64,000 nt of DNA from Candidatus Latescibacterota bacterium (lineage in GTDB: Bacteria; Latescibacterota; UBA2968; UBA8231): assembly GCA_965203355.1 (NCBI GenBank), contig OZ241889.1:160001-224000 (forward strand), written 5' to 3'. Positions 1 through 16,110 of this stretch are shown piece by piece (the stretch's first letter is position 1; each line of letters opens with the position of its first letter). The notes under the pieces are model-generated. The model was not told the origin of the DNA and did not search any database. It saw only the letters and a list, made by a program, of their open reading frames with translations. The translations under genes were made by a program, and so were the position numbers.

Positions 1-1006
1 CGACCGGTCCTTGGAGGAAGTCGTAGCCCACGGCCGGCGGGGCCAGTCCAAAAGGTACGTAGTTCGCGTCGTCGTTGATCGAGTTGTACACGTAGCCGAG
101 ACTTAAATCGACATCGGCTCCGGCAAAATCGTCGCCGTAGCTGCCCAAATCCGGATCGGCCCACTGGGCGAAGTACATATCTTCAATGCGGGCCGTATCC
201 GGAGTAGCGCTGGTGCCTTTGTAAACGACCGTGAACTTCTTAAAAATCACATCGCCTAGCGCGTCCGTGCGGGCGTAGCCCCAAAGCAGCACTTGGACTT
301 CAAGACCAACGGGCTTGGAGCCGTACAGGGATTGCGCCGCCCCTACATCGAGGTCGTTAATCACAAACCAAGCCACTTGGTCGGCCCCGGCCACGCCCGG
401 CTCGTCCGCGTCTGGATTGTACTCGCCGTCCCCGTCGTTGTCGTAATAGGGCGCTCCTTTCTGATAGGGCCATTCGCGCCAATCCCGCTCGTACTGAGCG
501 CGGAGGGCCGCCACGTCGCTGTCGGTAACGGCACTCAGCCCAATCCCCAAGCTCTCAGCGGCGTCGAGCCGCAAGTCCGCCGTCCGGTAATCGCGGCGAA
601 TGCGGTAGATGCGGACGCTTGGATCGGCCGGATCTTCGGCCTCGCCTTTGGCGACGATGCGACCGGGCACGGTGCCTATCTCGTAGGTCTGGCCGCCGAC
701 GCGCAACTCCTGCGGGTCGCCATCCTTGACGATGCCGCCCCAGATCAGGCCATCCCGATAGATGACCTGAGCGGTTGAGCGCGGAAAGGTCACCCCGGAA
801 CTGGAAGTGAGTGGGTTGTACCCAGAGGATCCGTTTCGCTCAAACCACATGGCCATGTTGTTGATGTTGAGCAAGGCGCGCTGGCCGAAATCGTTTTCCT
901 GCGCGGTCTTGGCAGCGCGATGCGCGTTCGGTCCGCGGCTTTGGACCGGACCGGCTAGGCCGAGCAAAAGCCCAGTGGTCGCCAAATAGGTGACAAATTT
1001 TTTCAT
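1..1006 (-). CDS. Secreted protein of unknown function following a TonB-dependent receptor (3' end outside the window)
   Basis: Not in the ORF track because it runs off the edge. ATG at 1006 with a GGGAGG RBS; reads MKKFVTYLATTGLLLGLAGPVQSRGPNAHRAAKTAQENDFGQRALLNINNMAMWFERNG... with no stop to position 1. Signal peptide and a DNDGDG Ca-loop motif. Confidence 0.8.
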   Translation of the reverse strand, partial: MKKFVTYLATTGLLLGLAGPVQSRGPNAHRAAKTAQENDFGQRALLNINNMAMWFERNGSSGYNPLTSSSGVTFPRSTAQVIYRDGLIWGGIVKDGDPQELRVGGQTYEIGTVPGRIVAKGEAEDPADPSVRIYRIRRDYRTADLRLDAAESLGIGLSAVTDSDVAALRAQYERDWREWPYQKGAPYYDNDGDGEYNPDADEPGVAGADQVAWFVINDLDVGAAQSLYGSKPVGLEVQVLLWGYARTDALGDVIFKKFTVVYKGTSATPDTARIEDMYFAQWADPDLGSYGDDFAGADVDLSLGYVYNSINDDANYVPFGLAPPAVGYDFLQGPV

Positions 1007-1021
1007 AACGTTTTCCTCCCT

Positions 1022-4000
1022 TTACAGGCCCAGTTTGATCCCAAAGCGGATTTGACGCGGCGAGCCAAAAATGTCACCGCCTTCGTTGAACCAATAGTGC
1101 TGTCGGTTGGCCAAGTTGATGGCCTCGTATAACTGCTGGTACGTCAAACCGGCACTGGCCGCAACAATTTGGCTGCTCAGATCGGGATTGGTGAGGAAGC
1201 CGTCGTCTTCGGCGCTGCCAGTGCGGCTGTACACGTTAATCACGTTTTTGCGGTTGAACAGGTTGTAGACATAGAGGTAGATCTGGGCGTCGGCACCAAA
1301 CAGACCGAAGCCTTTATCTATTTTCATGTCAACTTCAAAAGTGTAAGGCGTCGAAGAGGCATTGATGCTTTCGGCTGGCTTGCGCGAGCGCGGGTCGTCG
1401 TTGGCGAGGATGCCGCCGTCTTCCGGGCCGCGCTGGCCGATGGACCCGCCCGACAAGGTGAAATTGTGGCCGCTGCTAAAACTCAACAGCAGGTTGGCCC
1501 CCAAGTTTTCGAGGATCGGCCCGCCGTCGTTGTCGGCAAAGCGATAGTCGACAAAGATGTTGCCGCGATGCGTCTCGTTAAAGTCCAACGGCGAGATGAT
1601 GGTGGGCAGGTTGGTGTTGTTCTCGACCCCAGAAACGGCCGAATTGATCGATGAGCCGGTGCCGCGGGCATCCGACAGGGTGTAGTTAAGCTCGGTGCGC
1701 AACCGATTGATGCGGCGCAGCTTGAAGACGAACTCCAAACCCTTGGTCGCGGCAAAGTCGCCGTTTTGCAGGAAATTGTACGCGCTGGCGTTTTGGGCCG
1801 CGGTCGAAATGTTTTGGCGCTGTAGCTGTAACTGGCCCTTCACGTCGCGGTAGAAGCCGGTGATGTCGAAGGAAGCCACGTCGGTAAATTGGCGCTCAAA
1901 GCCGATTTCGTACTGGGTGGTGCGGATCGGCTCAATGTCAAAGGCCGTGGGGATGCGGATAAAGTTCTGACCGCCCAACTCCAGGGCCAACCGCGCCCCG
2001 CCAGTAAACATCGAACGCATGGCCGGCATCTGCACAAAGCGGCCGTACTGCACGTGAAAGACCGTTAAGTCCGACACCGGGAACGAAAACCCGAGCCGCG
2101 GGCTAAGTTCGCTGAACGTGCGCGTCTTTTCCATTGAGCCGAGATCAATGGTGAAGAGCGAATCGCTGCGCACGGGTGCCGCGGGCTCCCTGAAGCGAAA
2201 ACTATCGACGTCGAAGTAATCCCAGCGCAGCCCGGCGTTCACGATGAGATCATTGTATTCGATCTTGTCCTGAATAAAGGCCGACGCTAGCACTGGATTG
2301 CGCGGAGCCTCCAGCCCGCGGCCTGCATCCTTGCGCCCAAAGGCGTCGAAGCCGAAGAAATCGGCCCGGCTGGTGTTGCGGATCATGGTGGCGAAATCAT
2401 CCAGACTGCCATCCCCATCGTCCAACGTCTCGGCCTTGTCAATCAGCGCGTCCATCAAGTCGGCGGCGGCAATCTCCCCGGCGTAGTACCGATCGTACAC
2501 TGAGTCCAGCTCGGGATACGTGTTTCTAATGGCGTTGCGGATCGAGTTCAGGGCGATGCCAAAGCGCCGCGAGGTCCAGCGCTGGACGTCAAAGCCCAGC
2601 TTGTACTCATGCACATCGGTCTGGCGGGTCAGGCTACCGCCAACGCCGTAGTAGCGATCCTCCTCCTCGGCGTAAAGGCTGGACCGAGACGTGCCGTCTA
2701 CCGGCCATACCGGCGTACCCGGGCGGGCAAAGGGAAAGCCGTTCAAGTCGTAGTTGCGCGGTGCCACGCCTTGGGCGGAATACGGCGTGAAATCGGGGGA
2801 GGCTTGAGCCACGGCCAAGCTGTCGTTATAGAGCATGAAGTTGTCTCTAAAAACCGGGTCGAAGGTATCGCGACTTTGGTTGTAAAGACTGACGTTCACC
2901 TCGTAGAACATTTTGGGGCTGAGCAAGTGGGTGCCCTTGATATTGAGCAAGCCCGACACCCGCTCCCTTTCGGGCAGCCGCGCCGTATTGAGCATGTTGC
3001 GAACGGGCGTGGGATTGAGTTCCTGATCCTCGATGGAATAGAGGCCGGTGAGGCGCAGTTGGAAGGGCAGCATATCGAATAGCAGAGTGCCGTTGAAATT
3101 GAGCTGCTCGCGGCCAGTATGGTCGATATTGCCCGGCCGCAGATTCAGATCCACGGTATCGGGTATGGCATTGCCGTCGGCGTCCTCGCGCCAGTGGATT
3201 CGGCCGCCGCGGTCGCCGGAATCGACCAAGTCGTCAAACTGGAAGCCCTCCCAATAGGAAGGCTGGAAATCCCGCACCCAGCGCTGCCCGGCGAGAAACG
3301 CCCGCACGTTCTTGAGGCCCACCACCGGACCGCTCAAGGTGACGACCTGGGTAGAATAACCATAGGAATAGGTGCCAAAGCGCTGTTCATACGGGGAAGT
3401 GAAATTATCCGTCTCGCTCAGCACCCCGATCTGCCACGCTGGCGTGCCCGTGCGCAACTCTTGGAGAATGATGCCAGCATTGGCCCCGCCGTACTCGGCG
3501 TTGAAGCCGCCGGCTTGTAGCTGAACTTCCTCGAGCGCCTCGTCAATTAGGCCCACAGCACTGCTGCCGGTGATTGGATTGCGGACGCTAGCCCCATCGA
3601 CGTAGTAGCCAATCTCGTCGGAGCGCGAGCCGCGCACGTGCAACGCGCCTTCGTCCAAAACCACGCCCGGCTGTATGTCGATGACGCCGTTGACCCCTCT
3701 AAACGGCAGGATCTCTAGGTCCTCAGCCCCGACGATGCGCACCGCATTGGTGGCGGTTTTGTCGATAATTGGCCGCTCGGCGCGAATTACCACCTCCTCG
3801 ACTTGGATATCCGAAGAAGTCAGGTCGATGTTGAGATTCGTGGTTAGGTTGGCGGAAACCCGCACATCCTCAATGGTATAATCCGCGTAGCCGATATACG
3901 TGGCCTTGAGGGTGTAGGCACCCGCTGGCACGTTGAGAATAAAAAAGCGGCCCTTTTCGTCCGCCGTCGTCCCTAGCTTGGTATCTACCACCGCGATATT

Positions 4001-4147
4001 GGCATGGGGTAGCCCATCGCCGGTGGCGGCATCCTGGACGACACCGGCGATCTTACCGCCCGTACTGGCCTCGGCCGGAGCCAAGCTCAGCGCGAGCAGG
4101 ACGCCCAGTGCGGTCAGAGTGCGAAAAACGCCTGTGAACTTGGTCAT
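1022..4147 (-). CDS. TonB-dependent receptor with N-terminal carboxypeptidase-regulatory-like domain
   Basis: Start moved to ATG 4147 (MTKFTG) behind AAGGAGG. Signal peptide, GKIAGVVQDAATGDGLP domain, plug motifs HVRGSRSDEIGYYVDG and GGFNAEYG, C-terminal RQIRFGIKLGL beta-strand. Confidence 0.92.
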   Translation of the reverse strand: MTKFTGVFRTLTALGVLLALSLAPAEASTGGKIAGVVQDAATGDGLPHANIAVVDTKLGTTADEKGRFFILNVPAGAYTLKATYIGYADYTIEDVRVSANLTTNLNIDLTSSDIQVEEVVIRAERPIIDKTATNAVRIVGAEDLEILPFRGVNGVIDIQPGVVLDEGALHVRGSRSDEIGYYVDGASVRNPITGSSAVGLIDEALEEVQLQAGGFNAEYGGANAGIILQELRTGTPAWQIGVLSETDNFTSPYEQRFGTYSYGYSTQVVTLSGPVVGLKNVRAFLAGQRWVRDFQPSYWEGFQFDDLVDSGDRGGRIHWREDADGNAIPDTVDLNLRPGNIDHTGREQLNFNGTLLFDMLPFQLRLTGLYSIEDQELNPTPVRNMLNTARLPERERVSGLLNIKGTHLLSPKMFYEVNVSLYNQSRDTFDPVFRDNFMLYNDSLAVAQASPDFTPYSAQGVAPRNYDLNGFPFARPGTPVWPVDGTSRSSLYAEEEDRYYGVGGSLTRQTDVHEYKLGFDVQRWTSRRFGIALNSIRNAIRNTYPELDSVYDRYYAGEIAAADLMDALIDKAETLDDGDGSLDDFATMIRNTSRADFFGFDAFGRKDAGRGLEAPRNPVLASAFIQDKIEYNDLIVNAGLRWDYFDVDSFRFREPAAPVRSDSLFTIDLGSMEKTRTFSELSPRLGFSFPVSDLTVFHVQYGRFVQMPAMRSMFTGGARLALELGGQNFIRIPTAFDIEPIRTTQYEIGFERQFTDVASFDITGFYRDVKGQLQLQRQNISTAAQNASAYNFLQNGDFAATKGLEFVFKLRRINRLRTELNYTLSDARGTGSSINSAVSGVENNTNLPTIISPLDFNETHRGNIFVDYRFADNDGGPILENLGANLLLSFSSGHNFTLSGGSIGQRGPEDGGILANDDPRSRKPAESINASSTPYTFEVDMKIDKGFGLFGADAQIYLYVYNLFNRKNVINVYSRTGSAEDDGFLTNPDLSSQIVAASAGLTYQQLYEAINLANRQHYWFNEGGDIFGSPRQIRFGIKLGL

Positions 4148-4185
4148 ATATCCCTCCTTTGGTAGGACACTCAATAAAGACTCTT

Positions 4186-4899
4186 TCACATCAAATGCAA
4201 CCAGTCTTCCAAGAGAAAAGTCACGCGCCCGATCAACAGCGAAACTCTCGCCATAATGGTGTAACCAAACGACGCCCCAAACGAGACCATCAAAAACCAT
4301 ATCCCCACCTTGGAGACATGGCCGGCCGCGCCAGTGTGCTCGACGGAAAAGAAAAAATAAACCAACACCCCTATTACCCCTACTAGGACGATCAGCAAAT
4401 TAAGCCCCTCCCAGCTCCAAGTCAGTGGTTGTAATGTAGGCTCAATTTGGGCTAAAATAAAAGAAGAAACATAGCGGGGAATCGTCAGGCCGGCCCCCAG
4501 CCCCACAAAAAATGCAAAAGCATAGCGGCTAAGCCAACCAAAGCGCAGCGAAAAGCGCGTCAACATCAACAGCCCGAGTATCGTCGGGGCCAACAACCAC
4601 CAGTTGGGCGTCTCCCCTTCCCCCAGATCGGTCCATTCGGCGATGAGTTCGCCGTAGATCGTCGGATACCAATTCTGGCCGAATATGTAGGCCGCGGCCA
4701 CGCCGACGAAAACGTGTTCGGCAAACTTGAAAAGCGGGTTGTCCTTGTAGAGGAAGCTATAGAGTGCCAAGGTCATGCCTGCCGCGACAATAACGCCCAA
4801 ACCCGTCCAATCCGCCGCCAAGATCCCACTCGCCACCAAGCCGATATTGACCGCGGCAAACAGCAGGAGCAAACCCAAAAAGACATACGTATCGCGCAT
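4186..4899 (-). CDS. Uncharacterised polytopic inner-membrane protein (about 7 TM)
   Basis: 237-aa hydrophobic ORF with a GGAG RBS, 3 bp from the upstream gene's stop. Confidence 0.85.
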   Translation of the reverse strand: MRDTYVFLGLLLLFAAVNIGLVASGILAADWTGLGVIVAAGMTLALYSFLYKDNPLFKFAEHVFVGVAAAYIFGQNWYPTIYGELIAEWTDLGEGETPNWWLLAPTILGLLMLTRFSLRFGWLSRYAFAFFVGLGAGLTIPRYVSSFILAQIEPTLQPLTWSWEGLNLLIVLVGVIGVLVYFFFSVEHTGAAGHVSKVGIWFLMVSFGASFGYTIMARVSLLIGRVTFLLEDWLHLM

Positions 4900-4902
4900 G
4901 GC

Positions 4903-5733
4903 TTAACTCTCCTGCTGCGCTCGGCCCCGCCGAGCAGCGAAATACGCGATATTGCCAAAAATCACGAAGGCGATGATGATCAAATGGGTCGCCGACTGGG
5001 CACTCATGCCCTTGCTGGCACTGCCGCGAAGCCCAATCAAGGTTTCGTATTCGGCGGCACCGGCTAGGCCACCGAGTAGGCCGCGGAGTTGTCCCGAGTC
5101 GAGAAAGGGGTAGAGATCGGGCGCCATCACGGCGGTGCAGCCGGCCGCAAAGGGAAAGCCGTATTTCTCCTGCCCGTAGGGGATCCACCAAAACTCAATC
5201 GAATCCCCGGCGGCTAAATCAAAGACGAGGGCAAAATCGCGTAGCGAGCGCAAACCCCGCGTCAATTCCAAATCGCCGACACTTGCGCCCCAATTGTCCT
5301 GCGGGAAGGTGCCGTGGAAGTCCTGCCCCATGTTGAGGATGACGCTGAACCCCCCGACCTTGTAGCCCATGAAGGCGTAATCCACCCCGTACTCCAAATC
5401 GAATTCGGCCGCCAGTTCCTCCAGCACCTGTTGGGCCAGCCCCGCGGCATCGGGCCACAGGCAGATGGCGATCACCTTGAGGTCGCGGCGAAAGGCGTGG
5501 CGCAAAACCGAACGCGCCATGGGCTGCATCTCAGGATATGTGCTAGCGCCGTAGGAGAAGGAAACCAGCACAATGTCCCCCGCGTCGAGCTTTTCGACTT
5601 GGTCGTATGCGGCTTTTACTTCGCCCGTCGGCGTAATCGGCAGATAAATCCCGGCCAACAACGGCCCGGCTACGCCCACAAAAACTAGGGCGAAAATGAT
5701 GCGGCGGTCGATAGCGAGTAGCTTGTGCATCAC
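4903..5733 (-). CDS. Uncharacterised membrane-anchored alpha/beta protein (N- and C-terminal TM)
   Basis: 276 aa; start overlaps the upstream stop; TM at both ends; GLLGGLAGAAEYE motif. Confidence 0.85.
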   Translation of the reverse strand: MMHKLLAIDRRIIFALVFVGVAGPLLAGIYLPITPTGEVKAAYDQVEKLDAGDIVLVSFSYGASTYPEMQPMARSVLRHAFRRDLKVIAICLWPDAAGLAQQVLEELAAEFDLEYGVDYAFMGYKVGGFSVILNMGQDFHGTFPQDNWGASVGDLELTRGLRSLRDFALVFDLAAGDSIEFWWIPYGQEKYGFPFAAGCTAVMAPDLYPFLDSGQLRGLLGGLAGAAEYETLIGLRGSASKGMSAQSATHLIIIAFVIFGNIAYFAARRGRAQQES

Positions 5734-6389
5734 TCGGAGCCTCCGCCCAAATACGAGCGTTCAATCCCAAAGATGATACGCAGCGAGGTCGCAATGGCCC
5801 CTAGAGACACCCCGAGCAGGACGCCGCGTTTAGCCGCCAAGTTGGGCACGTTCAGCAGCCAATCGCTTACCAGCGGAAAAAACTCGGAGATCTCGCGGCC
5901 AATGGGTACGCGGCCCAGCATGACGATCACGGCCGCGACCAACAACAGCGCGGCCTCGGGCGTACGGGCGCGAAAGGTCCGGTACGCCGCCGAAGCGATA
6001 AAGAAGGCCAAAATCGAGAACATAGTACTCGAACAAGGCCGATGGACGTACAGGAAGAGCCAATTGTAGCCCCCGGCTTTGGCTTGGGCGGCAAACGGGC
6101 CATGTCCATCGTTGTAGATAACGAAGACCATCATCACCACAAAACTGGCGATGGCAACGAAGCTGTAGCCCCAACCGATGGCCTGCTGCCGGATGCGCTG
6201 CCAGTGCAAGTTAAGCAGGCTGTACAGCCCGAGCAGGTAGGAAAACGCAAAAATAATCCGCACCCATTTTCCCCCGACCTCTTGCTCAAAGCCTTGGGCA
6301 TAGCCGTGTGGTATGTAGTAAATGGCAATGCCCAGCAAGCCAAAGACTAAGGCGATGGCCAGCGGTAAGGTCCGACTAAGAAACAGCAT
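5730..6389 (-). CDS. Uncharacterised polytopic inner-membrane protein (about 6 TM)
   Basis: 219 aa, GAGGAGG RBS, hydrophobic segments, motifs FFIASAAYRTFRAR and LRIIFGIERSYLG. Confidence 0.85.
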   Translation of the reverse strand: MLFLSRTLPLAIALVFGLLGIAIYYIPHGYAQGFEQEVGGKWVRIIFAFSYLLGLYSLLNLHWQRIRQQAIGWGYSFVAIASFVVMMVFVIYNDGHGPFAAQAKAGGYNWLFLYVHRPCSSTMFSILAFFIASAAYRTFRARTPEAALLLVAAVIVMLGRVPIGREISEFFPLVSDWLLNVPNLAAKRGVLLGVSLGAIATSLRIIFGIERSYLGGGSE

Positions 6390-6398
6390 GGCCCCTCC

Positions 6399-7646
6399 TC
6401 AATAAGGAGTAAAGAAGTGAGTCAGGTGAGGCAACCGCAGCCCAACAGCCTCTAAAGTCGCCAACACAGTACCCAACACCAAAGCGACCAAAATCAGAGC
6501 CTTACCAGCGTCCTGGCCTTTGAGGCTGCCCAACATGCGCGGCTCGCCCGACAGATAAGCACTGGCTGCGTAGAGCTCCTCGCCGAGCAGGGTATAATCG
6601 CAGGTAGTGATAAAGAACGGCAACTGGGTAAAGGAATCGGTACCAGCGATCTGAATCGCCCCGGTCGTCGAACCCGTCTCGGCCAGCAGCAGCGACTCAG
6701 CATAGAAATATCCCATCATAATGTGAGCCGCCGGGCGGTCGCGGACCATGATGCCCTCGACTGCTGCCGCATAGCTAAACTGCTCGGTGCCGGCGATGAA
6801 AACATGATCGGGATTGAAGGCGTCAGGCCGCCCCGCCTCCACATACGAGGCTTTGACCGTCTCCTGACTTACCGACATAACCACCGGATCCGGGGCCACC
6901 ACCCGCAGCGCGGTGTCGTATTCGGCCGTGCGCCGGGCGACCCGCCCCAAAATATTGACCGCGGCAATGGTCGATATGGAGTCCATGAAGCGCAAGCCGT
7001 GGATGAAAAGCACCGGCTTGCCCATCTCGGTCGCCCGCCCCAGTGCCTCGTCGAGTGCCTCTAGCCCGGCGATGCGGCGGATCTTGAGTTCGCGCCGCCG
7101 CGCAATACCAATATAGCCCATGATGAGCCCTGAAAACACGACGCACAACACCAGATTGTTGACTTTGGCGCGGTTAAAAAAATTGCCTTTGGACTCGGCA
7201 TTGACGATCACTTTGCCGCGGACCGCGCCCCCAGCCGACCGCACATCAATGTGAAAGTAATACGTCTTGCCGTCTTCTAATGGCGTTTTGCCGCCCGCGT
7301 CAGCGAATTCCTCGACGTTGACATAGTGGTAATTCCCCAGCTCGGCCCCGTGCCCAAAGAGCGCCGGTGCCTCGGACATCAAGTTCCCCGTGGGCGCAAC
7401 TTCAGCCACGACGCGAAAAGGTCCGCTGGGCGAATCGGCGATGGCGACCTGATACATCGCATTGTCGCTGATCCGGGGATCGCGCGACCAAGTTAGCGTA
7501 ATGCTGCCCCCGTCGTCGTTGGGCGTGTCGAAGGCTTGTATCTCGATCGGCGGCATGGAGTGCGCCAGCCCTTGTGCCCCGTTCTCTGCCGCGCTCGCCA
7601 ACGGCCAAGCCAAGACGAATGCAGATAGCCAGTTTTTTGCTCTCAT
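6399..7646 (-). CDS. Fibronectin-III-like plus DUF6754-type membrane protein
   Basis: Start ATG 7646 (MRAKNW) after GAGGA. Signal peptide, FN3-like DTPNDDGGSITLTW domain, TM, IRRIAGLEALDEALGRATEMGKPV...TCDYTLLGEELYAASAYL region recalled as DUF6754, C-terminal TM. Confidence 0.8.
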   Translation of the reverse strand: MRAKNWLSAFVLAWPLASAAENGAQGLAHSMPPIEIQAFDTPNDDGGSITLTWSRDPRISDNAMYQVAIADSPSGPFRVVAEVAPTGNLMSEAPALFGHGAELGNYHYVNVEEFADAGGKTPLEDGKTYYFHIDVRSAGGAVRGKVIVNAESKGNFFNRAKVNNLVLCVVFSGLIMGYIGIARRRELKIRRIAGLEALDEALGRATEMGKPVLFIHGLRFMDSISTIAAVNILGRVARRTAEYDTALRVVAPDPVVMSVSQETVKASYVEAGRPDAFNPDHVFIAGTEQFSYAAAVEGIMVRDRPAAHIMMGYFYAESLLLAETGSTTGAIQIAGTDSFTQLPFFITTCDYTLLGEELYAASAYLSGEPRMLGSLKGQDAGKALILVALVLGTVLATLEAVGLRLPHLTHFFTPY

Positions 7647-7650
7647 GCCT

Positions 7651-8766
7651 TTATTCCTCAATCAGTTCCACATTTGCCCGCGGCACTACCGCCTGTTCTC
7701 CATCTTCAAACTCTACGGCCAATACCCGCACCCGCGCCCCAGACTCCACCGTACACAGCTCGGTCGGCAAGTCGCAGACGCGCCCAATCCGCCCAAAATA
7801 GGGCATCCGAATTACCCGCAACAAATCGCCCACCTGCAATCCTTTCGCGCCCGGTCGCACCTCTTCTGCCTCTTGGTCAGCGGCCGTGGGGACGATAATC
7901 TCCGGCCGCAACACGCCAGCGCGGATTTGAGTCGCACCGGCCATAGACGCATCCATGCCAGCGCAGGCCTGCAGAATATCAAATGTCTTGCGCGCCATGG
8001 CGACGCGGCCAAAGCCCTCGGTCGCTACTACCGTCAGGCCGATTTGCTCCGTCCCGGTGATAGCCACACCCAAATCGCGGCCAAGCAGGTCGCGCAAGTC
8101 GCTGTCGCGCAAACCGCCGCCGATCAACCCCACGGCACCTGCCTGCCGGGCCTGTTCCACAGTCTCCGCGCTAATCAGACTGCCTACCACGACAATTTTG
8201 CCTGCAACTTCCGGGCCCAGCGACTCGGCTGCGGTGTCAGGCGCCTCAACCGCCAAGTGCAGCGCACCCCAGCACTCCCCGCCCACGCCGAAAATGCCCT
8301 GGATGTAAGCACCTCGCGCTGCGACGCGCACACCTTCCTCGGCAAAAACTTCCTCGACAACCCCATCGACGTAAGCCAGCACTTCGACCGGCCTAGGAGC
8401 TTGCCGCAATATCACCTGACCCGTAACCGGCGAAATGCTCTCGACGGTGCCGCTGACCGGGGATTCAATCGTGGTCTTGAACCAGCGAATAAACGGCTTG
8501 GTCTCGGCGAGAGGCTCGCCAGCTTCGACCCGGTCGCCTTCCTTTTTGAGCATATAGCTAGCTAGATCTTGCGGCGAGGTGCCTAGGCGGTTGACCAAGT
8601 TGAGCGTCGCTACCTCGCCCGGCAATTCGGTGCGGGCCACGACTTGGTCGCGCCGCACCACTTGGTCTCGCTCAACGACCACTTCGCCTTTGAGGGGCAA
8701 ACGCCGCTCTTTGTGGATGATGGCGCGTTGCGTCACGCGCAGTCCAGGGGTATAAGCATGGGCCAT
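7651..8766 (-). CDS. Soluble protein with barrel-sandwich-hybrid (biotinyl/lipoyl-like) repeats, central alpha/beta domain and C-terminal KOW/SH3-like domain
   Basis: GEVVVERDQVVRRDQVVA and KKEGDRVEAGEPLAE...IESPVSGTVESI patterns; C-terminal LQVGDLLRVIRMPYFGRIGRV...VPRANVELIE. Confidence 0.8.
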   Translation of the reverse strand: MAHAYTPGLRVTQRAIIHKERRLPLKGEVVVERDQVVRRDQVVARTELPGEVATLNLVNRLGTSPQDLASYMLKKEGDRVEAGEPLAETKPFIRWFKTTIESPVSGTVESISPVTGQVILRQAPRPVEVLAYVDGVVEEVFAEEGVRVAARGAYIQGIFGVGGECWGALHLAVEAPDTAAESLGPEVAGKIVVVGSLISAETVEQARQAGAVGLIGGGLRDSDLRDLLGRDLGVAITGTEQIGLTVVATEGFGRVAMARKTFDILQACAGMDASMAGATQIRAGVLRPEIIVPTAADQEAEEVRPGAKGLQVGDLLRVIRMPYFGRIGRVCDLPTELCTVESGARVRVLAVEFEDGEQAVVPRANVELIEE

Positions 8767-8769
8767 GAG

Positions 8770-10551
8770 CTACTCGTATAGGTTTAGCGCCTGCTGCCAG
8801 TCGCTTATCTGACGCCGGCGGTCTTGATCTGACGCCATCTGGATGGGCCGCCCGCGCCCATCCAACACTAGCCCGACTACGCCACCGCGCACTCGTGCGT
8901 TTAGAGCTTGCCCCGGGCCAGCCCCCACATCCCACCGCCGCGCCGGCTGGAGCGAGACTTCGACCACCTCGCCATCGGCCAAAGGCATCCGCTGTAACTG
9001 GCCGATCGGTAACTGGCCGGTTTGACGCCCGCTGGGCAGGTCTATTTCGTATTGGAGGCAGACCTCGCCGGCCTTGCCCTCGCCGACAGGAGCCACACAG
9101 GTGCCCAAGTAGATCAGGCAATCGCGCTCGAAAACCTCGGTGGCAGCGCGCTTGTCCACAGTCGAGAGGACTCCCAAGTGAGGCATCATAAAGATACTAT
9201 CGACCGCCAAGCGGGTGACGCCTTCGGGCTGGAAGGCATCTATGAGCATGGCGCAACTTTGCTCGCGGCGGGGCGCGTGTGAGAGCACTCCGCCGCTGCC
9301 GACTAGCAGGTCCAGCCCCATCATCTCAACTAAACTCTCGCCGGTGGCCCCCTGCTCAAAAACATCGGCCAGCGTGCGCTTGCTCTGCACTCCCTTCAAC
9401 CCCACCGCCAACGCCCGATGCTGATCAAAGGCCAAGCGCAGTGCTTCGCGGGCAATGGCTTGCTCAACTTGTAGTTCCTGCATGAGTTGTGGGATGGTCG
9501 TCGGGCGAATCATCTTGTTTTTGATCCGGTCGCGGAGGTCGGCCTCCTCAATGTCAAAAGGAACCCAGCGCATGATTTGGCCGAGGCCGGCCTCGGCCAA
9601 CACGTTGGAGACGCTATAGGACATGCCGAGATTAGCACTGACCGTGCGGTTGAACACGCCGTCGAAAACGCTGAATACATCGGTCGTCGCCCCACCGATA
9701 TCCACGCCGACGACGTCGATCCCCTGCTGGCGGGCAATAGTCTGCATGATCTCGCCCACCGCCCCGGGCGTCGGCATAATCGGCGCACTGGCCCAGCCCA
9801 TCAGCTTGCTGTAGCCAGGAGCCTGCGCCATGACGTGCTCGAGGAAGAGGTCGTGAATGACGTGCCGCGCCGGGTCCAGATTTTCCTCTTCGAGCACGGG
9901 GCGGATATTCTCGGTAACAGTCAGGGCCATCTTCCCTCCCAGTGCCTTTCCGACCTCCTCGCGTGCGTCCTCATTGCCGGCAAAAATGACCGGCAACTTA
10001 AAGCCGGCGCCAAAGCGGGGCTTGGGATCGGCCGCGCTGATGAATTCGGCCAGTTCGACCACGTGACTGACGGTGCCGCCATCCGTGCCGCCCGACAGCA
10101 ATACCATATCGGGGCGCAACTGGCGAATCCGCTCTATTTTTTCGTGCGGCAAGCGCCTATCGTTGGCGGCGAGCGCGTCCATGACGATCGCCCCGGCACC
10201 CAAGGCGCAACGCTGGGCACTCTCGCCGGTCATCGCCAGGACCACACCGGCCACTACCATCTGCAATCCACCGCCCGCACTGCTCGTCGAGACGTAGCTA
10301 TCGACCCCGACATCGCCGGCGGCCGGCGTGATAATCCGCTCGCCATCGAGGATCTGCCGCCCGGAAAGCTCCTCGACCTCTTGAATGGCGTTGAGAACTC
10401 CCCGAGTGACGTCTTCAAAGGGGGCCTCAACCGTGGTTGGAGCCTCGCCGCGAAAGGTCTGGCGATACCCTTCTTCCTTCTTTTCGATCAGGATCGCCTT
10501 GGTCGTCGTACTGCCGCAGTCCGTGGCGATAACTACGTTGAGTTCATCCAT
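8770..10551 (-). CDS. GlmL/MutL(glutamate mutase L)-like ASKHA actin-fold ATPase
   Basis: Phosphate-1 DCGSTTTK, SSAGGGL, GGTDGG, phosphate-2 VDIGGATTDVFS, adenosine LVGSGGVLSHAP. Start ATG 10551 overlaps the upstream stop. Confidence 0.88.
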   Translation of the reverse strand: MDELNVVIATDCGSTTTKAILIEKKEEGYRQTFRGEAPTTVEAPFEDVTRGVLNAIQEVEELSGRQILDGERIITPAAGDVGVDSYVSTSSAGGGLQMVVAGVVLAMTGESAQRCALGAGAIVMDALAANDRRLPHEKIERIRQLRPDMVLLSGGTDGGTVSHVVELAEFISAADPKPRFGAGFKLPVIFAGNEDAREEVGKALGGKMALTVTENIRPVLEEENLDPARHVIHDLFLEHVMAQAPGYSKLMGWASAPIMPTPGAVGEIMQTIARQQGIDVVGVDIGGATTDVFSVFDGVFNRTVSANLGMSYSVSNVLAEAGLGQIMRWVPFDIEEADLRDRIKNKMIRPTTIPQLMQELQVEQAIAREALRLAFDQHRALAVGLKGVQSKRTLADVFEQGATGESLVEMMGLDLLVGSGGVLSHAPRREQSCAMLIDAFQPEGVTRLAVDSIFMMPHLGVLSTVDKRAATEVFERDCLIYLGTCVAPVGEGKAGEVCLQYEIDLPSGRQTGQLPIGQLQRMPLADGEVVEVSLQPARRWDVGAGPGQALNARVRGGVVGLVLDGRGRPIQMASDQDRRRQISDWQQALNLYE

Positions 10552-10879
10552 GTTTGTGGCTTTCGCGCTGGGCAATGGCCTCCGCAAGTAGGTCTATAGA
10601 TTGGCGTCGCTCCAACATGCGCGTAAATCGCTCGTACTCGTCACGCGAAAAAACCAGCGTGGCAAACGGGGCCAAAAAGGTCAGGGCTTGGCTACCCAAA
10701 AAGTTGAGGGGACGACAAGCCTCCAACGCCATAGACGCAGCCGCTCCCATGCGGCGACGCACTATAAACTCGGCTAACCGCTCGGCCAGCGCACGCTCTT
10801 CCTCAGACCAACTCGCCTCCGGGTCTTCGAGGGCAAAAGCGCGTCGCCACCGCTCTTTCAAGCTATTGACTTGGAACAT
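10544..10879 (-). CDS. Conserved-type hypothetical protein (111 aa, helical)
   Basis: Start moved to ATG 10879 (MFQVNSLKERW); overlaps both neighbours; LEACRPLNFLGSQ motif. Confidence 0.7.
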   Translation of the reverse strand: MFQVNSLKERWRRAFALEDPEASWSEEERALAERLAEFIVRRRMGAAASMALEACRPLNFLGSQALTFLAPFATLVFSRDEYERFTRMLERRQSIDLLAEAIAQRESHKHG

Positions 10880-11279
10880 GGCACCGAACGAAATGCACAA
10901 CTTCTTCGCGGTTCTGCTCAAAGCGCAAAAAAACGCCGCGAAAGGAATCCAGCCGACTCGGGCGAGCAGATGGACGCAAAAAAATGCCGTCCCAATGTTC
11001 ATCTACTCGACGGAATTCCGCCCAAGAGCGGCGCTGCTTGAAACCGAGATGTTCGCTGTTGATCCCCTCGCTGTCGAGCACATAGCGCGTGGGAAAGAAG
11101 TAGCGCGACAGCGAGGCGGTCAATGCCCCGAGCGAAAATGCCCCGTACAACCAATGCTCAAACCCAAAGGCAGCGGCCGCTGAGGAAGCGATGATGAGCG
11201 CGACCAGTAGCACTGATTTGGCCGGCCGCTCCCGGCGCAAGGGGTGAATTGCCCAGCGAAGCGGGGCTGCGAAGGACAC
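10863..11279 (-). CDS. Small membrane protein (2 TM plus short beta-rich C-terminal domain)
   Basis: GTG 11279 after AAGGA, 10 bp from the upstream stop; FFPTRYVLDSEGI...RRSWAEFRRV pattern resembles YcxB/PH-like domains. Confidence 0.7.
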   Translation of the reverse strand: MSFAAPLRWAIHPLRRERPAKSVLLVALIIASSAAAAFGFEHWLYGAFSLGALTASLSRYFFPTRYVLDSEGINSEHLGFKQRRSWAEFRRVDEHWDGIFLRPSARPSRLDSFRGVFLRFEQNREEVVHFVRCHVPSQ

Positions 11280-11289
11280 CGACGTGTCC

Positions 11290-13125
11290 TTAGTACATCT
11301 GCATTTTCTGCGCGACCCACCAATCTTGCAAGCGGACGCCAGGGGGATACCAAGTGACGCCACTGAAGCGGCGGCTATAAGCTTGGGCCGTGCGCGGCTT
11401 CCACAAAAAGGTATAGGGCTGTTCCTCGTGCAGGATTTCTTGAAAGCGCTGGTAGAGTGCGATGCGCCTTTCCATGTCGAACTCGCGGCGGTAGGTCTCC
11501 AAGATGTCGTCAACCTCGGCGTTGATGAAGCTCACCGCGTTGGAACCGTTCGCTACGGCCTGGGAGGAATGCCAGATCTGGTAACCGTCGGGCGCGAACT
11601 TCACATTGCCGGTCCAAGCCAGCACCATGGCGTCAAAATCCTTGCCGCGGACTTTTTGCAAAAAAATCGACCAATCTAACTCGCGCACTTGGCAGTCAAT
11701 GCCGATGTCCTGCAACTCGTATTGCAAAGTCAGGGCGATGTCCTTGCGGATCTGGTTGCCCGAATTGATCAAAATCTCAAAGCGAAATGGCACCCGATTT
11801 CCGCTGATGGCCTTATCGAGAATGCCGTCCTCGTCGGCGTCCTCCCAGCCAGCTTCCGCCAGCAGGTCGAGGGCGCGGTCGGGATCATACGCGTACGGCG
11901 CGAGATCGTGGTTGTATTCGGGGCGGAACTTGTGAATCGGCCCCTCCACCGCTTCGGCTAGGCCGAACATGATGTTTTCGACCATGCCCTCGCGGTCGGT
12001 TAGATAGGTCATGGCTTGGCGCACCCGCTTGTCGCCAAAAATTGGATGATTGTTGTTCCAGCCGATGTACAAATATCCACCAGCATAGCTAACGCCTTTG
12101 AGGAAGCGGCGGTTGAAGTCTTCCGACCAACTCTTTTCCTTAAATTCCAATGGGCGCAGAGCGTGGTAGTCGAGATTGCCATTGGTCAACTCGATGAATG
12201 CCGCGTCAGTATTGTTGATGATGTTAAAGACGATCTTATCGACAAAGCCAGGCGGCAGTAGCCCTTCCACATCTCGCCCCCAGTAGTTTTCGTTCCGCGT
12301 CAGCACGATTTTTTGTTGAGTGACCAAGTCGCGCTCTGGATCTTCTATTATATACGGCCCCGAGCCTAGGACCTTGCGGTTGAAATTTTGATTGAATTGT
12401 TCGGCAAAGCGCTCGACTCGCTCTTTGTGTGGCCCCTCCGCCCAAGAACCATCCACCAAACTCTTGACCTCGACCGGGTCCAGCAAACCCTCTGGATCGT
12501 AAAAGTGCTTAGGCAAGATATCGAAGCCGCCCAAGATCAGGTCATTGCGGAAATAGCGCTTGTCGCACAGAAAGCTGACCTTGTTCGCGCCTACCTGCTG
12601 TACCGCTTCGACAGCGGCGTAGTAGTTGCGCAGATGCGGCGCTAGCACTTGGGGATTGTGAATGACCTTCATGCTGAAGACGACGTCCGCCGCCGTCAGC
12701 CGCTTGCCGTCTGAGAAGTAAACCCCGTCGCGCAGTTCAAACGTATAGGTGAGTTTGTCCGCAGAAATCTCCGGGTAGCCCTTGGCGATTAGCCCTCGCA
12801 ACGCATAGGGCGGATCCGAGTCGGCTTCGAGCAGGCTTTCAAGTACGTAATTCAAGACCGTGCTGGCACCGGCATCATTAGCGGTGTACGGATTGAGTTT
12901 TTCGGGGTCGGACAGCATGTGGCGCACCATCCAATCACCGTAGGTCGGCTCTTCTCCGCTCTCGTAGCGCAGCGACGCCTTCTCAATGCCGTCGAGCACG
13001 ACGATATCCTCGGTACTCATGAGAATTTCCTGCACTACTTCCCATGATTCCTCCTCAGCGGCGACATGACCGCCGATGCAGACACCCAACCAAGCAGCCA
13101 CTATGGACATTCTAACTTTCGGCAT
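11290..13125 (-). CDS. ABC-type oligopeptide/nickel family 5 solute-binding protein (AppA-like)
   Basis: Signal peptide; YTFELRDGVYFSDGKRLTAADVVFS, GSGPY, DKRVRQAM, YDPDRALDLLAEAGW, QEILHEEQPYTFL motifs. Confidence 0.93.
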   Translation of the reverse strand: MPKVRMSIVAAWLGVCIGGHVAAEEESWEVVQEILMSTEDIVVLDGIEKASLRYESGEEPTYGDWMVRHMLSDPEKLNPYTANDAGASTVLNYVLESLLEADSDPPYALRGLIAKGYPEISADKLTYTFELRDGVYFSDGKRLTAADVVFSMKVIHNPQVLAPHLRNYYAAVEAVQQVGANKVSFLCDKRYFRNDLILGGFDILPKHFYDPEGLLDPVEVKSLVDGSWAEGPHKERVERFAEQFNQNFNRKVLGSGPYIIEDPERDLVTQQKIVLTRNENYWGRDVEGLLPPGFVDKIVFNIINNTDAAFIELTNGNLDYHALRPLEFKEKSWSEDFNRRFLKGVSYAGGYLYIGWNNNHPIFGDKRVRQAMTYLTDREGMVENIMFGLAEAVEGPIHKFRPEYNHDLAPYAYDPDRALDLLAEAGWEDADEDGILDKAISGNRVPFRFEILINSGNQIRKDIALTLQYELQDIGIDCQVRELDWSIFLQKVRGKDFDAMVLAWTGNVKFAPDGYQIWHSSQAVANGSNAVSFINAEVDDILETYRREFDMERRIALYQRFQEILHEEQPYTFLWKPRTAQAYSRRFSGVTWYPPGVRLQDWWVAQKMQMY

Positions 13126-13158: not shown

Positions 13159-14079
13159 TCAAACGAAGGTCAACCACCCGTGCGGGTCCTCAGCTCCGAC
13201 GCGGACCACGGCGAAAAAGGCATCTTGGATCTGTGCGGTGATCGGCCCGCACTTCCCACAGCCGATTTGCACTTGGTCTATAGCGCGAATCGGCGTGATT
13301 TCGGCGGCCGTGCCAGTGAAGAAAACCTCGTCGGCAATATAGAGAAACTCGCGTGGAATACCGCGCTGCTCAACCCGCATCCCCAAGTCGCGTATCAAGG
13401 TTATGGCGGTGTGGCGGGTGATGCCCGGCAGAATGGCAAAACACGACTCAGGCGTGTAGATCGAGCCGTTCTTGATGACAAAGATATTCTCGCCGCTGCC
13501 CTCGCTCACCAACCCATCTGTTCCCAAAACAATACCCTCGTCGTAGCCGTTGGCATTGGCTTCAATCCGCACGAGCTGCGAGTTGAGGTAGTTGCCGCCG
13601 GCCTTGGCCAAGGCGGGAAACGTATTCGGGGCCATGCGGTTCCACGACGAGGTGCAGACCGAAACGCCGTTTTTCAGCGCCGCCTCTCCGAGGTACTCTC
13701 CCCACTCCCACACGGCGATCACCACGTCAACCGGGCACCCCATCGGATCAACTCCCAAGTTCTTATAGCCGCGGAAGACAACCGGGCGAATATAGCAGGC
13801 CGCGAGCTGATTGACGCGGATCGTCTCGAGAATGGCCTCGGTGATTTCCTCCCGCGTATAGGGAATGTCCATGCGGTAGATTTTGGCGGAATCAAATAAC
13901 CTGTTGACGTGCTCGTCGAGGCGGAATACGGCCGAGCCTTTCGCGGTCTCGTAACAGCGAATGCCTTCAAAGACGCTCGAGCCGTAGTGTACTACGTGGG
14001 AAAGCACGTGGATCTTGGCGTCGTCCCAATCGACCCATTGGCCATTGAACCAGATTTTATCGCATTTGGGCAGGGGCAT
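13159..14079 (-). CDS. ilvE: Branched-chain amino acid aminotransferase
   Basis: [47 protein letters not shown]. Confidence 0.96.
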
Positions 14080-14154: not shown

Positions 14155-16110
14155 TTACAACGTTCGCGTATAGGTTACATTCAAGCTGTCAAACGTGCCG
14201 CTGCGCTGGATACTGCGGCTGCCACGCAAGACGAGCTTGTTGTCGCTGCCGACCGGATTGTAGTTAAAACTCACCGCCAGAGTCCGGTGTTTGTTGTGGC
14301 GGTTGAGGGAACGCGACTGAGCAAACTCGAAGTATTCGTAATCCCACTGGCGATCGCGCCTATAGGTATAGGTTGCGCCGACCGAGTAGTCAGGGCTGGG
14401 CGAGTAGGTCATGCCGAATTGAAGAGTGTATCTGGCGTTTTCCTCTTCGACGATCTGGGTGCCGTTTTCCAAAATCAGCGTACCGTCATCGTTGGCCGAA
14501 TAGTTGTAGCGTGCGTTGAGCGCAAGGTCGTCTAGCACCTTGCGCCGCAGCGAGTGTGCCATGCTCCAGCCGCGGCGGATATTGCTTTTGCGCGACGACT
14601 CGCGGCGATTGACTTGGCGATCGAAATCGTAGATGATGCGCCGCGCCGAGACGCTGAATCGGTGCGAAAAGGACGTGTCCAAGCGCTCGTAATTGGTGCC
14701 GACATTGAGCGAAATGTCGCGGTTGCGCGCGTTGTCCACGGCGCGGGTGGCGTGCAGGTTCACGCGATGCAAGAAGCTATTTTTGAGGTCAACGCTGAGC
14801 TTGACACCCGATCGCAGGGTGCCGTCATAGCTGAGGCTCACGCTGTTGTTGAAGGTGTCGCGGTCCTGCTTGGGGGCCCCTGGGTTTTCCGAGCGTTTGA
14901 TCTCGCCAAAGGTCGCCAACCGCAGCGAATGCCCATCGGCCAAGGGCCAGTTGAGAGAGCCGTTGAGAAAGAGATTGCGATTGATCTCGTCGGACCTTCG
15001 ATCGCGGCACGTTCCGTCCGCCGAGCGCGTGAAGTGGCTATCGCAAAGGCTGGTATCAGGCACCCGCACGGCCAGCCGACGCACGTCGCTGCCTTTGAAG
15101 CGGACGCTGGTGTTGAGGACCAGCTTCTCGACCAACTTGCCCGAAAGGGACGCGCTCCAGCTAAAGTTCTCGCCGAGGCGATCCTTGCCAAAGAAGCGGT
15201 TGTCTAAATCCTGGATCGCATTGTCGGTGTTGGTGTGTTCGTTCTTACTGTACGAGGCACTGTTTTTTATTTTAAAGCGCCCTAGATCAAACTCCACGTT
15301 GGAGGAAAAGCTAGTGCTGCGCGTTTTCGCCAACTCGGCACTGACCACCGTGTCGCGCACCACAGCCTCGCCGACTATAGCCTCGCTGATGGCGCGGCGC
15401 GAGCGGCCCTTCTGAGAGCGGTTTTCAGACATACTCAGGGCGACGCGCACATCGCCGGGAAAAGTATAGCTCACATTGCCGCTCAGCCGCTCGCTGCGGT
15501 CCTTGTTGTGTTCGAGCGTATCGTCTGTTTTGCTCAGCGAAATCGAGTTATTCAGCTTCTTGTCCGCAATCTCAATGTCGGGTGAGACCCTCAGCGAAGC
15601 ATTGTAGCGGATCCCGGTCTCCTTGATGGTGCTGTCGAGGCTGGCGCGGCTAGCGCGGGTGGCCTTGATCAGGCTCGGAACCAAGTTGGCACTCAGACTC
15701 TTGAATGGACCGCTGCTCAGTGGCTTAGACCCAAAGCCAAAGTCAAAGGACTGGCTGTGCGTCTTCTGCTTGTGCAGCGTTACGTTGCGCGTACTCATGC
15801 TGGCACCGAGGCTGATGGTGGCCTTGGGGCCGAGAATGGGATAGTTGACCCGAGATCGGGCCGAGGCATTGTCCTGCCAACTCTTGCCGGTACTGCGATC
15901 GTAGAGGCTAAACCCCATATTCGCCGATGCGTTGATCGCCAGCTTGGAGGTCGAGTCCCCTACCGCCGAAAACCGCACGGGCGTCGAGTAGCTCCAGCTA
16001 GGAAACGAATGGTTCCAAGAGGTTTGGGAACTGGAGCGGCGGAAGTTGAGCGTGTACTGTGCATCGGCCGCCGTCCATGCGACCAATACCAGCCACAAGA
16101 CCGGCTTCAC
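14155..16110 (-). CDS. Putative outer-membrane beta-barrel protein of unknown function
   Basis: Signal peptide (ADA-QY), alternating amphipathic beta-strand pattern throughout, C-terminal LNVTYTRTL. Confidence 0.7.
   Translation of the reverse strand: MKPVLWLVLVAWTAADAQYTLNFRRSSSQTSWNHSFPSWSYSTPVRFSAVGDSTSKLAINASANMGFSLYDRSTGKSWQDNASARSRVNYPILGPKATISLGASMSTRNVTLHKQKTHSQSFDFGFGSKPLSSGPFKSLSANLVPSLIKATRASRASLDSTIKETGIRYNASLRVSPDIEIADKKLNNSISLSKTDDTLEHNKDRSERLSGNVSYTFPGDVRVALSMSENRSQKGRSRRAISEAIVGEAVVRDTVVSAELAKTRSTSFSSNVEFDLGRFKIKNSASYSKNEHTNTDNAIQDLDNRFFGKDRLGENFSWSASLSGKLVEKLVLNTSVRFKGSDVRRLAVRVPDTSLCDSHFTRSADGTCRDRRSDEINRNLFLNGSLNWPLADGHSLRLATFGEIKRSENPGAPKQDRDTFNNSVSLSYDGTLRSGVKLSVDLKNSFLHRVNLHATRAVDNARNRDISLNVGTNYERLDTSFSHRFSVSARRIIYDFDRQVNRRESSRKSNIRRGWSMAHSLRRKVLDDLALNARYNYSANDDGTLILENGTQIVEEENARYTLQFGMTYSPSPDYSVGATYTYRRDRQWDYEYFEFAQSRSLNRHNKHRTLAVSFNYNPVGSDNKLVLRGSRSIQRSGTFDSLNVTYTRTL

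Follow-up and report, generated by a model that had tools for sequence, protein, structure and literature searches.

A Conserved Seven-Gene Unit Encoding a MutL-Family ATPase and a Candidate Inner-Membrane Module in Latescibacterota and Other Phyla

What is a relative of glutamate mutase L doing in a run of membrane protein genes? The question arises from a 64,000-nucleotide stretch of contig OZ241889.1 (assembly GCA_965203355.1, Candidatus Latescibacterota bacterium), referred to here as the window. The left 13.1 kb of the window holds 11 co-directional genes, all on the minus strand and lettered A to K in the order of transcription. Seven of them, C through I (window 4186-10879), form a conserved unit of two modules, a division made because D-E and F-G-H-I are both kept even when they are unlinked. 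The encoded proteins suggest a cytoplasmic module, C-D-E, and an inner-membrane module, F-G-H-I, with about 16 to 17 transmembrane (TM) helices. It is likely that the seven genes make up one functional system, and we lean, less firmly, towards a reading in which their products are a conserved seven-protein system of two cooperating modules, driven by ATP through D and E. The members are as follows, with gene starts picked from start codons, Shine-Dalgarno-like motifs, and orthologue alignments.

C, 10544-10879, minus strand: 111 amino acids, small helical protein, core member of the cytoplasmic module, no Pfam family
D, 8770-10551, minus strand: 593 amino acids, GlmL/MutL-family ASKHA (actin-fold) ATPase with a conserved C-terminal extension of ~100 amino acids
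E, 7651-8766, minus strand: 371 amino acids, partner of D, with barrel-sandwich hybrid, swivelling beta/beta/alpha, and KOW/SH3-like domains
F, 6399-7646, minus strand: 415 amino acids, signal peptide, periplasmic FN3 domain, TM helix, cytoplasmic DUF6754 alpha/beta domain, second TM helix
G, 5730-6389, minus strand: 219 amino acids, six TM helices, no Pfam family
H, 4903-5730/5733, minus strand: 276 amino acids, TM helix, periplasmic alpha/beta domain, second TM helix, no Pfam family
I, 4186-4899, minus strand: 237 amino acids, six to seven TM helices, no Pfam family

The seven-gene unit and its distribution

The genes are closely packed. The junctions within the unit are -8 (C/D), +3 (D/E), +4 (E/F), +9 (F/G), -1 to -4 (G/H), and +3 bp (H/I), and those outside it are +10 (A/B), -17 (B/C), +38 (I/J), and +15 bp (J/K). 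These values, -17 to +38 bp overall, bear out an earlier account of the locus, made from the letters of the window (the sequence-only reading), which had described 11 co-directional genes with overlaps or gaps of 3 to 38 bp and no evident terminator. A terminator scan agrees on the last point: it returned 15 sites against 17.8 +/- 4.1 in shuffled sequences, with no enrichment and no credible site within the gaps. The base composition of the stretch is unremarkable. There is also a weak expression trace, in that sponge metatranscriptome contigs from one library, representing relatives 90 to 95% identical, cover parts of A, D, E, and F, and one 304-nucleotide contig crosses the E/F junction (7569-7872). 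These contigs are not counted as support because contigs cannot prove a single transcript and the library may contain DNA.

Is the gene set kept in other genomes? Relatives of F number more than 8000 at 90% clustering and are encoded in at least 577 stretches (one genome per species), from which 80 loci were kept. The phyla named among these loci are Latescibacterota, Gemmatimonadota, Planctomycetota (Brocadia, Scalindua, and others, anammox genera among them), Nitrospirota, and Methylomirabilota. In tblastn searches with the window proteins, matches to F and G were found in all 80, to H in 79, to I in 77, to E in 66, to D in 61, and to C in 53, compared with 32 for B, 16 for A, and 8 each for J and K. 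The matches lie on the same strand at near-constant offsets. The clustering is far beyond chance, and gene order is kept across Latescibacterota, Planctomycetota, Nitrospirota, and Methylomirabilota. Hence the six genes first proposed as a core, D to I (4186-10551), do co-occur in order in other genomes and phyla, and C joins them: a C hidden Markov model (HMM) matches directly upstream of D in all 55 loci with enough flank, in every phylum sampled. All-against-all clustering of the open reading frames (ORFs) of the loci found no further family common to the phyla, and the core is therefore C-D-E-F-G-H-I. Loci without D or E mostly have a short upstream flank. In a Brocadia-like genome the D-E pair lies ~169 kb from F-G-H-I on the same contig.

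Presence and absence tell a similar story. Among 101 sampled Planctomycetota genomes, F is found in 27 and D (as a MutL-family gene) in 27, with both in 25, the near-identical profiles that would be expected if the two genes belong together, as the sequence-only reading had supposed. Of the four genomes with a single gene, one with F alone and one with D alone have it at a contig end; the others are a genome with a weak D match (1e-29, a 439-amino-acid frame) and one unexplained genome with F alone. Three Planctomycetota genomes (G180, G212, and G237) carry two or three MutL-family genes plus two DUF6754 genes, a sign that the system may exist there in paralogous copies as a whole. DUF6754 (PF20539), the domain family of F, is encoded by 125 of the 150 genomes sampled from the phylum of the closest relative, nearly always once per genome; it occurs in 7 of 61 Nitrospirota genomes and in none of 14 control genomes. 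The system is close to universal among Latescibacterota, and the core is conserved at the level of housekeeping genes.

The ATPase D and its partners C and E

What kind of protein is D? It matches the Pfam MutL family (PF13941) end to end, over profile positions 1-450, at 426.7 bits (gathering threshold, 27). Its scores against the more narrowly defined families are 232.3 bits for NCBIfam GlmL (NF040745; curated cut-off, 475), 211.4 bits for Or-4 (NF040744; cut-off, 600), and 158.8 bits for TIGR01319 (cut-off, 204.05). Because all three scores are below the curated cut-offs, D is placed by its sequence within the Pfam MutL superfamily and outside the families of mutase accessory proteins. D homologues are annotated "glutamate mutase L" in public records. 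Is there a mutase for D to serve? The GlmE family (PF06368) was found in none of five related genomes, three of them complete chromosomes, in searches that did not extend to other B12 enzymes (diol/glycerol dehydratase, ethanolamine lyase, aminomutases). Each of the five has exactly one MutL-family gene. In the 80 loci, glmS and glmE never adjoin D, and a mutase gene is likewise absent from the window cluster. The lack of GlmE, the single MutL-family gene per genome, and the scores below cut-off indicate that D is not a mutase accessory protein. The sequence-only reading had set D apart from the mutases, and the outcomes that would have contradicted it were not seen.

D is strongly conserved, with a mean column identity of 71% across phyla. 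The phosphate-1, phosphate-2, and adenosine motifs of the ASKHA fold are invariant in 24 orthologues, as are the stretches DCGSTTTK, SGGTDGG, GVDIGGATTD, and GSGGVLSHAPR. A sequence search found no PDB relative of D. When 1.84 billion representatives were searched for D homologues, 3109 clusters were obtained at E<=1e-3, and the best 150 were analysed. In 43 of these 150 an E-like region follows D in the same polypeptide; in one such natural fusion (P0122, 995 amino acids) the whole of E aligns at 44% identity. A tree of 101 near-full D domains places 29 fusions in one clade (support 1.0) and 12 scattered elsewhere, so that D-E fusion arose repeatedly. One C-D fusion (P0143) was also found among the 150. 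C itself carries a conserved motif, RPLNF-GSQ ... LERR.

For E, Pfam and NCBIfam scans gave only weak barrel-sandwich matches (Biotin_lipoyl, RnfC_N, NqrA_N), and a PDB sequence search gave weak matches to RnfC or to pyruvate carboxylase domains of the lipoyl type (E 0.02-0.05). An AlphaFold model (predicted local distance difference test [pLDDT] of 86.4 and predicted template modelling score of 0.74), compared with 48,161 PDB representatives, resolves into three domains: a barrel-sandwich domain, a middle swivelling beta/beta/alpha domain, and a KOW/SH3-like domain. The first and last of these had been recognized in the sequence-only reading, which overlooked the middle one. The mean column identity of E is 64%. 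Two activities were considered and rejected. A role as a phosphohistidine carrier finds no His column in residues 135-297 that is kept by more than 10 of 25 sequences, the sole conserved His of E being H3 (24 of 25). Carriage of biotin or lipoate was set aside because the "ETK" motif has its Lys outside the conserved columns. A predicted complex of E with F residues 186-390 scored 0.00 in two runs without controls, which is evidence neither way.

The swivelling domain recalls a better-understood ATPase. The alpha subunit of glycerol dehydratase reactivase is described as having an Hsp70-like ATPase domain and a swiveling domain, with ATP hydrolysis freeing the partner subunit from the latter (PMC7674605). 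Judging from the family of D and the model of E, the two together would reproduce this pair of ATPase and swivelling domains.

The membrane proteins and the neighbouring genes

F is anchored to a known family by its match to DUF6754 (PF20539; 372.4 bits against a gathering threshold of 27, 1.2e-111). Alignment-averaged hydropathy predicts a signal peptide plus two TM helices for F, six TM helices for G, two for H, and six or seven for I. In the model of F (pLDDT 70.9), residues 164-189 and 377-405 form TM helices, and between them lies a parallel alpha/beta domain at 198-330. A PDB sequence search with F gave no match, and the DUF6754 domain had no usable match among the named clusters of the Atlas. 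This domain has a mean column identity of 79%, with many invariant polar residues. From the distribution of charge, DUF6754 is predicted to be cytoplasmic, and the FN3 domain of F, the domain of H, and the loop of G that follows TM3 are predicted to be periplasmic.

G, H, and I belong to no recognized family. At E<=1, G gave no significant or consistent Pfam match in 25 orthologues (no family in more than 3 of the 25; best E 0.0069), nor did H in 24 (no family in more than 2; best E 0.012). For I, also with 24 orthologues, no match was significant: DUF3704 appeared in 8 (best E 0.026), and the single best match had an E of 0.0015. Look-alikes of H in the ESM Atlas are all "hypothetical" and are commonest in Chloroflexota, Latescibacterota, and WOR-3. 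The mean column identity of G is 61%. Charged or polar residues are invariant in G (H62, R137, R140, R142, and E210) and in I (D53, E61, R125, Q151, H188, R218, and R225). The idea of hidden paralogy between F and H and between G and I was discarded after profile-profile comparison gave probabilities of 1.3% and 0.3%, respectively.

The loop of G after TM3 is an insertion hot spot, at residues ~90 to 100. Among 36 long relatives of G, the soluble domain of H is inserted into this loop in 5, and other inserts of 180 to 400 amino acids occur there in 25, one with TPR and one with FG-GAP/VCBS repeats. TPR and FG-GAP/VCBS repeats are extracytoplasmic domain types. The long G relatives thus support the predicted topology. 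The same 36 proteins include one G-H fusion and three F-G fusions. F varies on the same side of the membrane: its long relatives (519 clusters of at least 806 amino acids) have an extended N-terminal periplasmic part, in which the only extra Pfam domains, for the best 120, are PF00041 (fn3), PF16656 (presumably an FN3-like domain), PF25059, and PF18705. Taken together, the inserts in G and the extensions of F indicate that the cytoplasmic side and the TM core are constant and the periplasmic side is variable. In one further protein (P0325, 545 amino acids, with a precomputed PF00474 match), the first 91 residues correspond to the middle part of G, which may mark it as a chimera or as a genuine fusion.

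What of the remaining genes in the run? These are as follows.

A, 11290-13125, minus strand: family-5 solute-binding protein, OppA-like (SBP_bac_5, 1.2e-74), neighbour outside the core
B, 10863-11279, minus strand: 138 amino acids, membrane-anchored accessory protein found in only some lineages, no Pfam family
J, 1022-4147, minus strand: TonB-dependent-receptor-like outer-membrane protein, neighbour outside the core
K, 2-1006, minus strand: N-terminal 335 amino acids of a large secreted protein, the gene being cut by the window edge, neighbour outside the core

The domain calls of the sequence-only reading hold throughout the run: SBP_bac_5 for A, MutL for D, DUF6754 for F, receptor-type domains for J, and no family for B, C, G, H, I, or K. 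The Pfam scan of K was negative. In J the CarboxypepD_reg domain is clear, the Plug domain (1.2e-5) is just above the cut-off, and for the barrel the matches to TIGR receptor models all stay under the cut-offs. B is recognized by its HMM upstream of C-D in 30 of 51 eligible loci; by label, these comprise 27 of 27 from Latescibacterota/Gemmatimonadota, 3 of 14 from Planctomycetota, and 0 of 8 from Nitrospirota. A is present in 16 of the 80 loci and J and K in 8 each, all of them close relatives. A, J, and K are lineage-specific neighbours and not members of the system, and the envelope-spanning machine once proposed, which took in the receptor and the binding protein, is not supported.

Nor is the suggestion of a peptide uptake system independent of ATP-binding cassette (ABC) transporters. 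A is the OppA of a conventional Opp importer, the other genes of which (OppB, OppC, OppD, and OppF) interleave with or flank the unit in relatives. Some Latescibacterota-type loci read B-C-D-[SBP5-OppB-OppC]-E-F-G-H-I-[OppD-OppF], followed by a PD40/peptidase_MA protein. Others have an OppD/F-like pair directly after I, detected with a tblastn ABC-ATPase probe, and one has a TPR gene, OppB, and OppC after I. In the locus L019:2596-15560 (and likewise in L009, L021, and L026) the importer genes are split around the core, an uncommon way for two multigene systems to be interleaved, and the PD40 plus peptidase_MA protein is ~1200 amino acids long. The absence of ABC permease and ATPase genes had been remarked on earlier, and it is true of the cluster inside the window. 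In the closest complete genome (L089:68-11203), I is followed by J, K (1173 amino acids), a PorV-like gene, a TPR gene, OppB, and OppC, all of them in the same direction and 0 to 27 bp apart, so that the corresponding genes would lie beyond the left edge of the window and their absence within it is no argument for non-ABC uptake. The permeases for A very probably lie just past that edge. In this lineage, then, the system is embedded in a conventional operon for Opp peptide uptake and outer-membrane proteins, and the repeated interleaving may mean that it is regulated together with foraging for proteins or peptides. Opp and TonB neighbours occur in this one phylum only.

Other phyla have envelope-related neighbours of their own. 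A TolB-like PD40 propeller gene lies between D and E in some Planctomycetota, and Memo-like and AsmA/YhdP-like genes lie downstream of the cluster in Nitrospirota. Two Planctomycetota loci with the PD40 arrangement (L082:724-1794 and L083:12381-13421) also encode F proteins of 1270 to 1310 amino acids, the long N-terminal parts of which have no Pfam match; L082 has two long F genes, and L083 has two copies of I in tandem.

A few features elsewhere in the window may be mentioned. Upstream of A lie a 306-amino-acid gene (13159-14079, minus strand), which we take to be branched-chain aminotransferase-like, and a gene for a Ser/Arg-rich protein of 651 amino acids with a signal-peptide-like start (14155-16110, minus strand); the two adjoin the cluster in 11 to 12 of the 80 loci. 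The ABC-type ATPase ORF at 18465-19184 (minus strand, 239 amino acids) departs at its end from the usual C-terminal part of sugar-type ABC ATPases and may be truncated or frameshifted; it served here as a search probe. A very large ORF (1874 amino acids) occupies 58270-63894 on the minus strand, near the right end. Near-identical copies of window 4186-11300 occur in public sequencing runs, some of them labelled sponge metagenome, with a share of at least 0.55 in two such runs, and the organism may be a sponge-associated bacterium of the Latescibacterota type.

Possible functions and known relatives

How might the two modules work together? C through I probably form an ATP-driven machine in the inner membrane; we infer the assembly of both modules, the ATPase activity of D, and the direction of action. 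In the scheme we propose, D would bind and hydrolyse ATP, and its turnover would move the swivel domain of E in the manner of the B12-dehydratase reactivases. E would then engage or release the cytoplasmic face of the membrane module, that is, DUF6754 and the TM core, and the change would be relayed to the far side of the membrane, where the FN3 domain of F and the alpha/beta domain of H make up the variable periplasmic part. If these proteins act as an actuator, the periplasmic domains would work on targets in the envelope or periplasm; in a transporter, they would gate the path of a substrate. Granted a single system, an actuator or regulator of periplasmic partners is a possibility that falls short of an even chance, a transporter is rather more doubtful, and reactivase-style maintenance of a membrane enzyme is more doubtful again. 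The actuator or regulator is favoured because the design is constant inside and variable outside and because the envelope neighbours are specific to each phylum.

We know of no described system in which an actin-fold ATPase is coupled to a polytopic membrane complex of its own. Searches of open-access PubMed Central and bioRxiv texts, without supplements, turned up no paper that mentions DUF6754 or PF13941 and none that deals with GlmL-like proteins away from mutase operons. Remote structural relatives do exist for the components (ASKHA, barrel-sandwich, swivel, KOW, and FN3 domains). Only tentatively would we go further and propose a new class of ATP-driven transmembrane machine, in which an actin-fold ATPase and a swivel-domain adaptor power an inner-membrane complex of ~17 helices that moves or actuates something in the periplasm. 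With the same reserve, such a class might bear no relation to ABC, P-type, rotary, or Sec-type systems and might serve a core envelope function in Latescibacterota, anammox Planctomycetota, Nitrospira, Methylomirabilis, Cloacimonadota, and other little-cultured phyla.

A number of points weigh against a single ATP-driven system. Nine Planctomycetota-labelled loci with ample flank, several of them Brocadiaceae, have no D or E, and the phylum names of all the relatives come from the titles of metagenome-bin records. Three loci with D-E fusions, of the Cloacimonadota type, have unrelated neighbours, with F-I not nearby, and D-E could act on other targets; Cloacimonadota records also contain long F proteins. 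The co-occurrence of F and D in Planctomycetota (Fisher p = 3.6e-19) is given by a statistic that ignores shared ancestry. Fusions that would link one module to the other are missing from the 150 D representatives, from the 36 long G relatives, and from the best 120 long F relatives. The G-H and F-G fusions could be read-throughs of gene calling, and an F-G fusion is at odds with the predicted topology. In the model of F, residues 328-382, the most conserved stretch of DUF6754, have a pLDDT of <50, and fold searches with the model returned FN3/Ig matches only, so no fold is assigned to DUF6754. Phosphotransfer of the phosphohistidine type by E is unlikely, its swivel domain having no conserved His.

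What else could explain the locus? A primary active transporter of a new class is one answer, with ATP hydrolysis by D and E driving a substrate through G and I and the periplasmic domains of F and H binding or guiding it. The thirteen polytopic TM helices of G and I, with their invariant charged and polar residues, would suit such a role, and so would the tight linkage of ATPase and membrane genes and the Latescibacterota loci in which OppA/B/C precede E, OppD/F follow I, and a TonB-dependent receptor adjoins. Yet G, H, and I show no likeness at E<=1 to any transporter family, the Opp and TonB neighbours belong to one phylum, and OppD/F ATPases are present wherever the binding protein and permeases are, so no ATPase is "missing". 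Variable periplasmic add-ons also suit the binding of partners better than that of a fixed substrate, and we consider this transporter unlikely. GlmL, EutA, and DdrAB are thought or known to be reactivases for B12 enzymes, and D-E might likewise be a maintenance factor of the reactivase or chaperone type, using ATP to exchange or repair a cofactor or subunit of a membrane enzyme made of F-G-H-I. D does belong to the Pfam MutL/GlmL family, DUF6754 is conserved at an enzyme-like level and modelled as a parallel alpha/beta domain, and D-E fusions occur by themselves in some phyla, as might be expected of a soluble chaperone. D and E also seem to match the ATPase/swivelling pair of the dehydratase reactivase alpha subunit (PMC7674605). 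Against this, no cofactor-binding or catalytic family was detected in F-I, GlmE is missing from all five relatives searched for it (the search did not take in other B12 enzymes), and the variability on the periplasmic side would have no obvious role. Such a maintenance factor seems distinctly unlikely, more so than the transporter.

Two further explanations dispense with a dedicated machine and are far less probable. D could be an ordinary accessory protein of a glutamate mutase or aminomutase that shares a convenience operon with unrelated membrane genes, as the "glutamate mutase L" annotation of its homologues and the unlinked modules of several Planctomycetota-labelled loci, many of them Brocadiaceae, might suggest. 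This is very improbable given that gene order is kept across phyla, that C precedes D in every eligible locus, that 25 of 27 genomes with one gene have both, that GlmE was found in 0 of 5 relatives, and that D falls below the GlmL, Or-4, and TIGR01319 cut-offs. Least credible of all is an anti-phage defence or mobile accessory island. Several genes, an ATPase among them, and a scattered distribution in Planctomycetota (27 of 101) and Nitrospirota (7 of 61) might call one to mind, but no PADLOC 2.0 model matches B-I at E<=0.01, and the single copy, the near-universal presence in one phylum (125 of 150), the housekeeping-level conservation, and the unremarkable base composition all speak against it.

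Why would an ATP-driven seven-protein system matter? If C-I are indeed one machine, it would be a new way to couple ATP to work across the bacterial inner membrane, and it would provide a first function for DUF6754, for three membrane-protein families without a Pfam entry, and for the large non-mutase branch of the "glutamate mutase L" family that is now misnamed in public records. It makes the role of GlmL-type ATPases testable. By record title, the carriers include bacteria of the nitrogen cycle (anammox genera, Nitrospira, and Methylomirabilis), and a role in the envelope or in nutrition could be of consequence for these hard-to-grow organisms.

How does the seven-protein system compare with known ones? 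The Opp/Dpp oligopeptide ABC importer shares the family-5 binding protein A, and in relatives OppB, OppC, OppD, and OppF flank the cluster or lie within it. In genomes that are not of the Latescibacterota type the cluster lacks those genes, and they are best seen as a neighbouring operon. The likeness of NqrA and RnfC, peripheral subunits of Na+-NQR and Rnf, to E is confined to one domain, and the system has neither redox cofactor domains nor Nqr/Rnf membrane subunits. FtsEX and the mechanotransmitting ABC systems of the MacB/LolCDE type offer what would be a functional analogy only, that of a cytoplasmic ATPase, a compact TM core, and variable periplasmic domains. Here the ATPase is predicted to have the actin fold, and C-I contain no ABC ATPase (PF00005) or ABC permease fold; across B-I as a whole such parts are likewise not found, OppB/C/D/F occurring only as neighbours in relatives. 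GlmL/MutL (PF13941, NF040745) and Or-4 of ornithine degradation (NF040744) share with D the MutL match and the ASKHA motifs, whereas D has the additional conserved C-terminal ~100 amino acids and comes with C and E in every case and, as a rule, with F-I. Finally, the diol and glycerol dehydratase reactivases (DdrAB/GdrAB; PMC7674605) combine an actin/Hsp70-like ATPase with a swivelling beta/beta/alpha domain, the fold class of the middle domain of E. No sequence similarity to these reactivases was detected, and D has no PDB match. In the window the ATPase and the swivel lie on two polypeptides, D and E, which are fused in other lineages. No B12 enzyme is encoded nearby, and a membrane complex is presumed to be the client.

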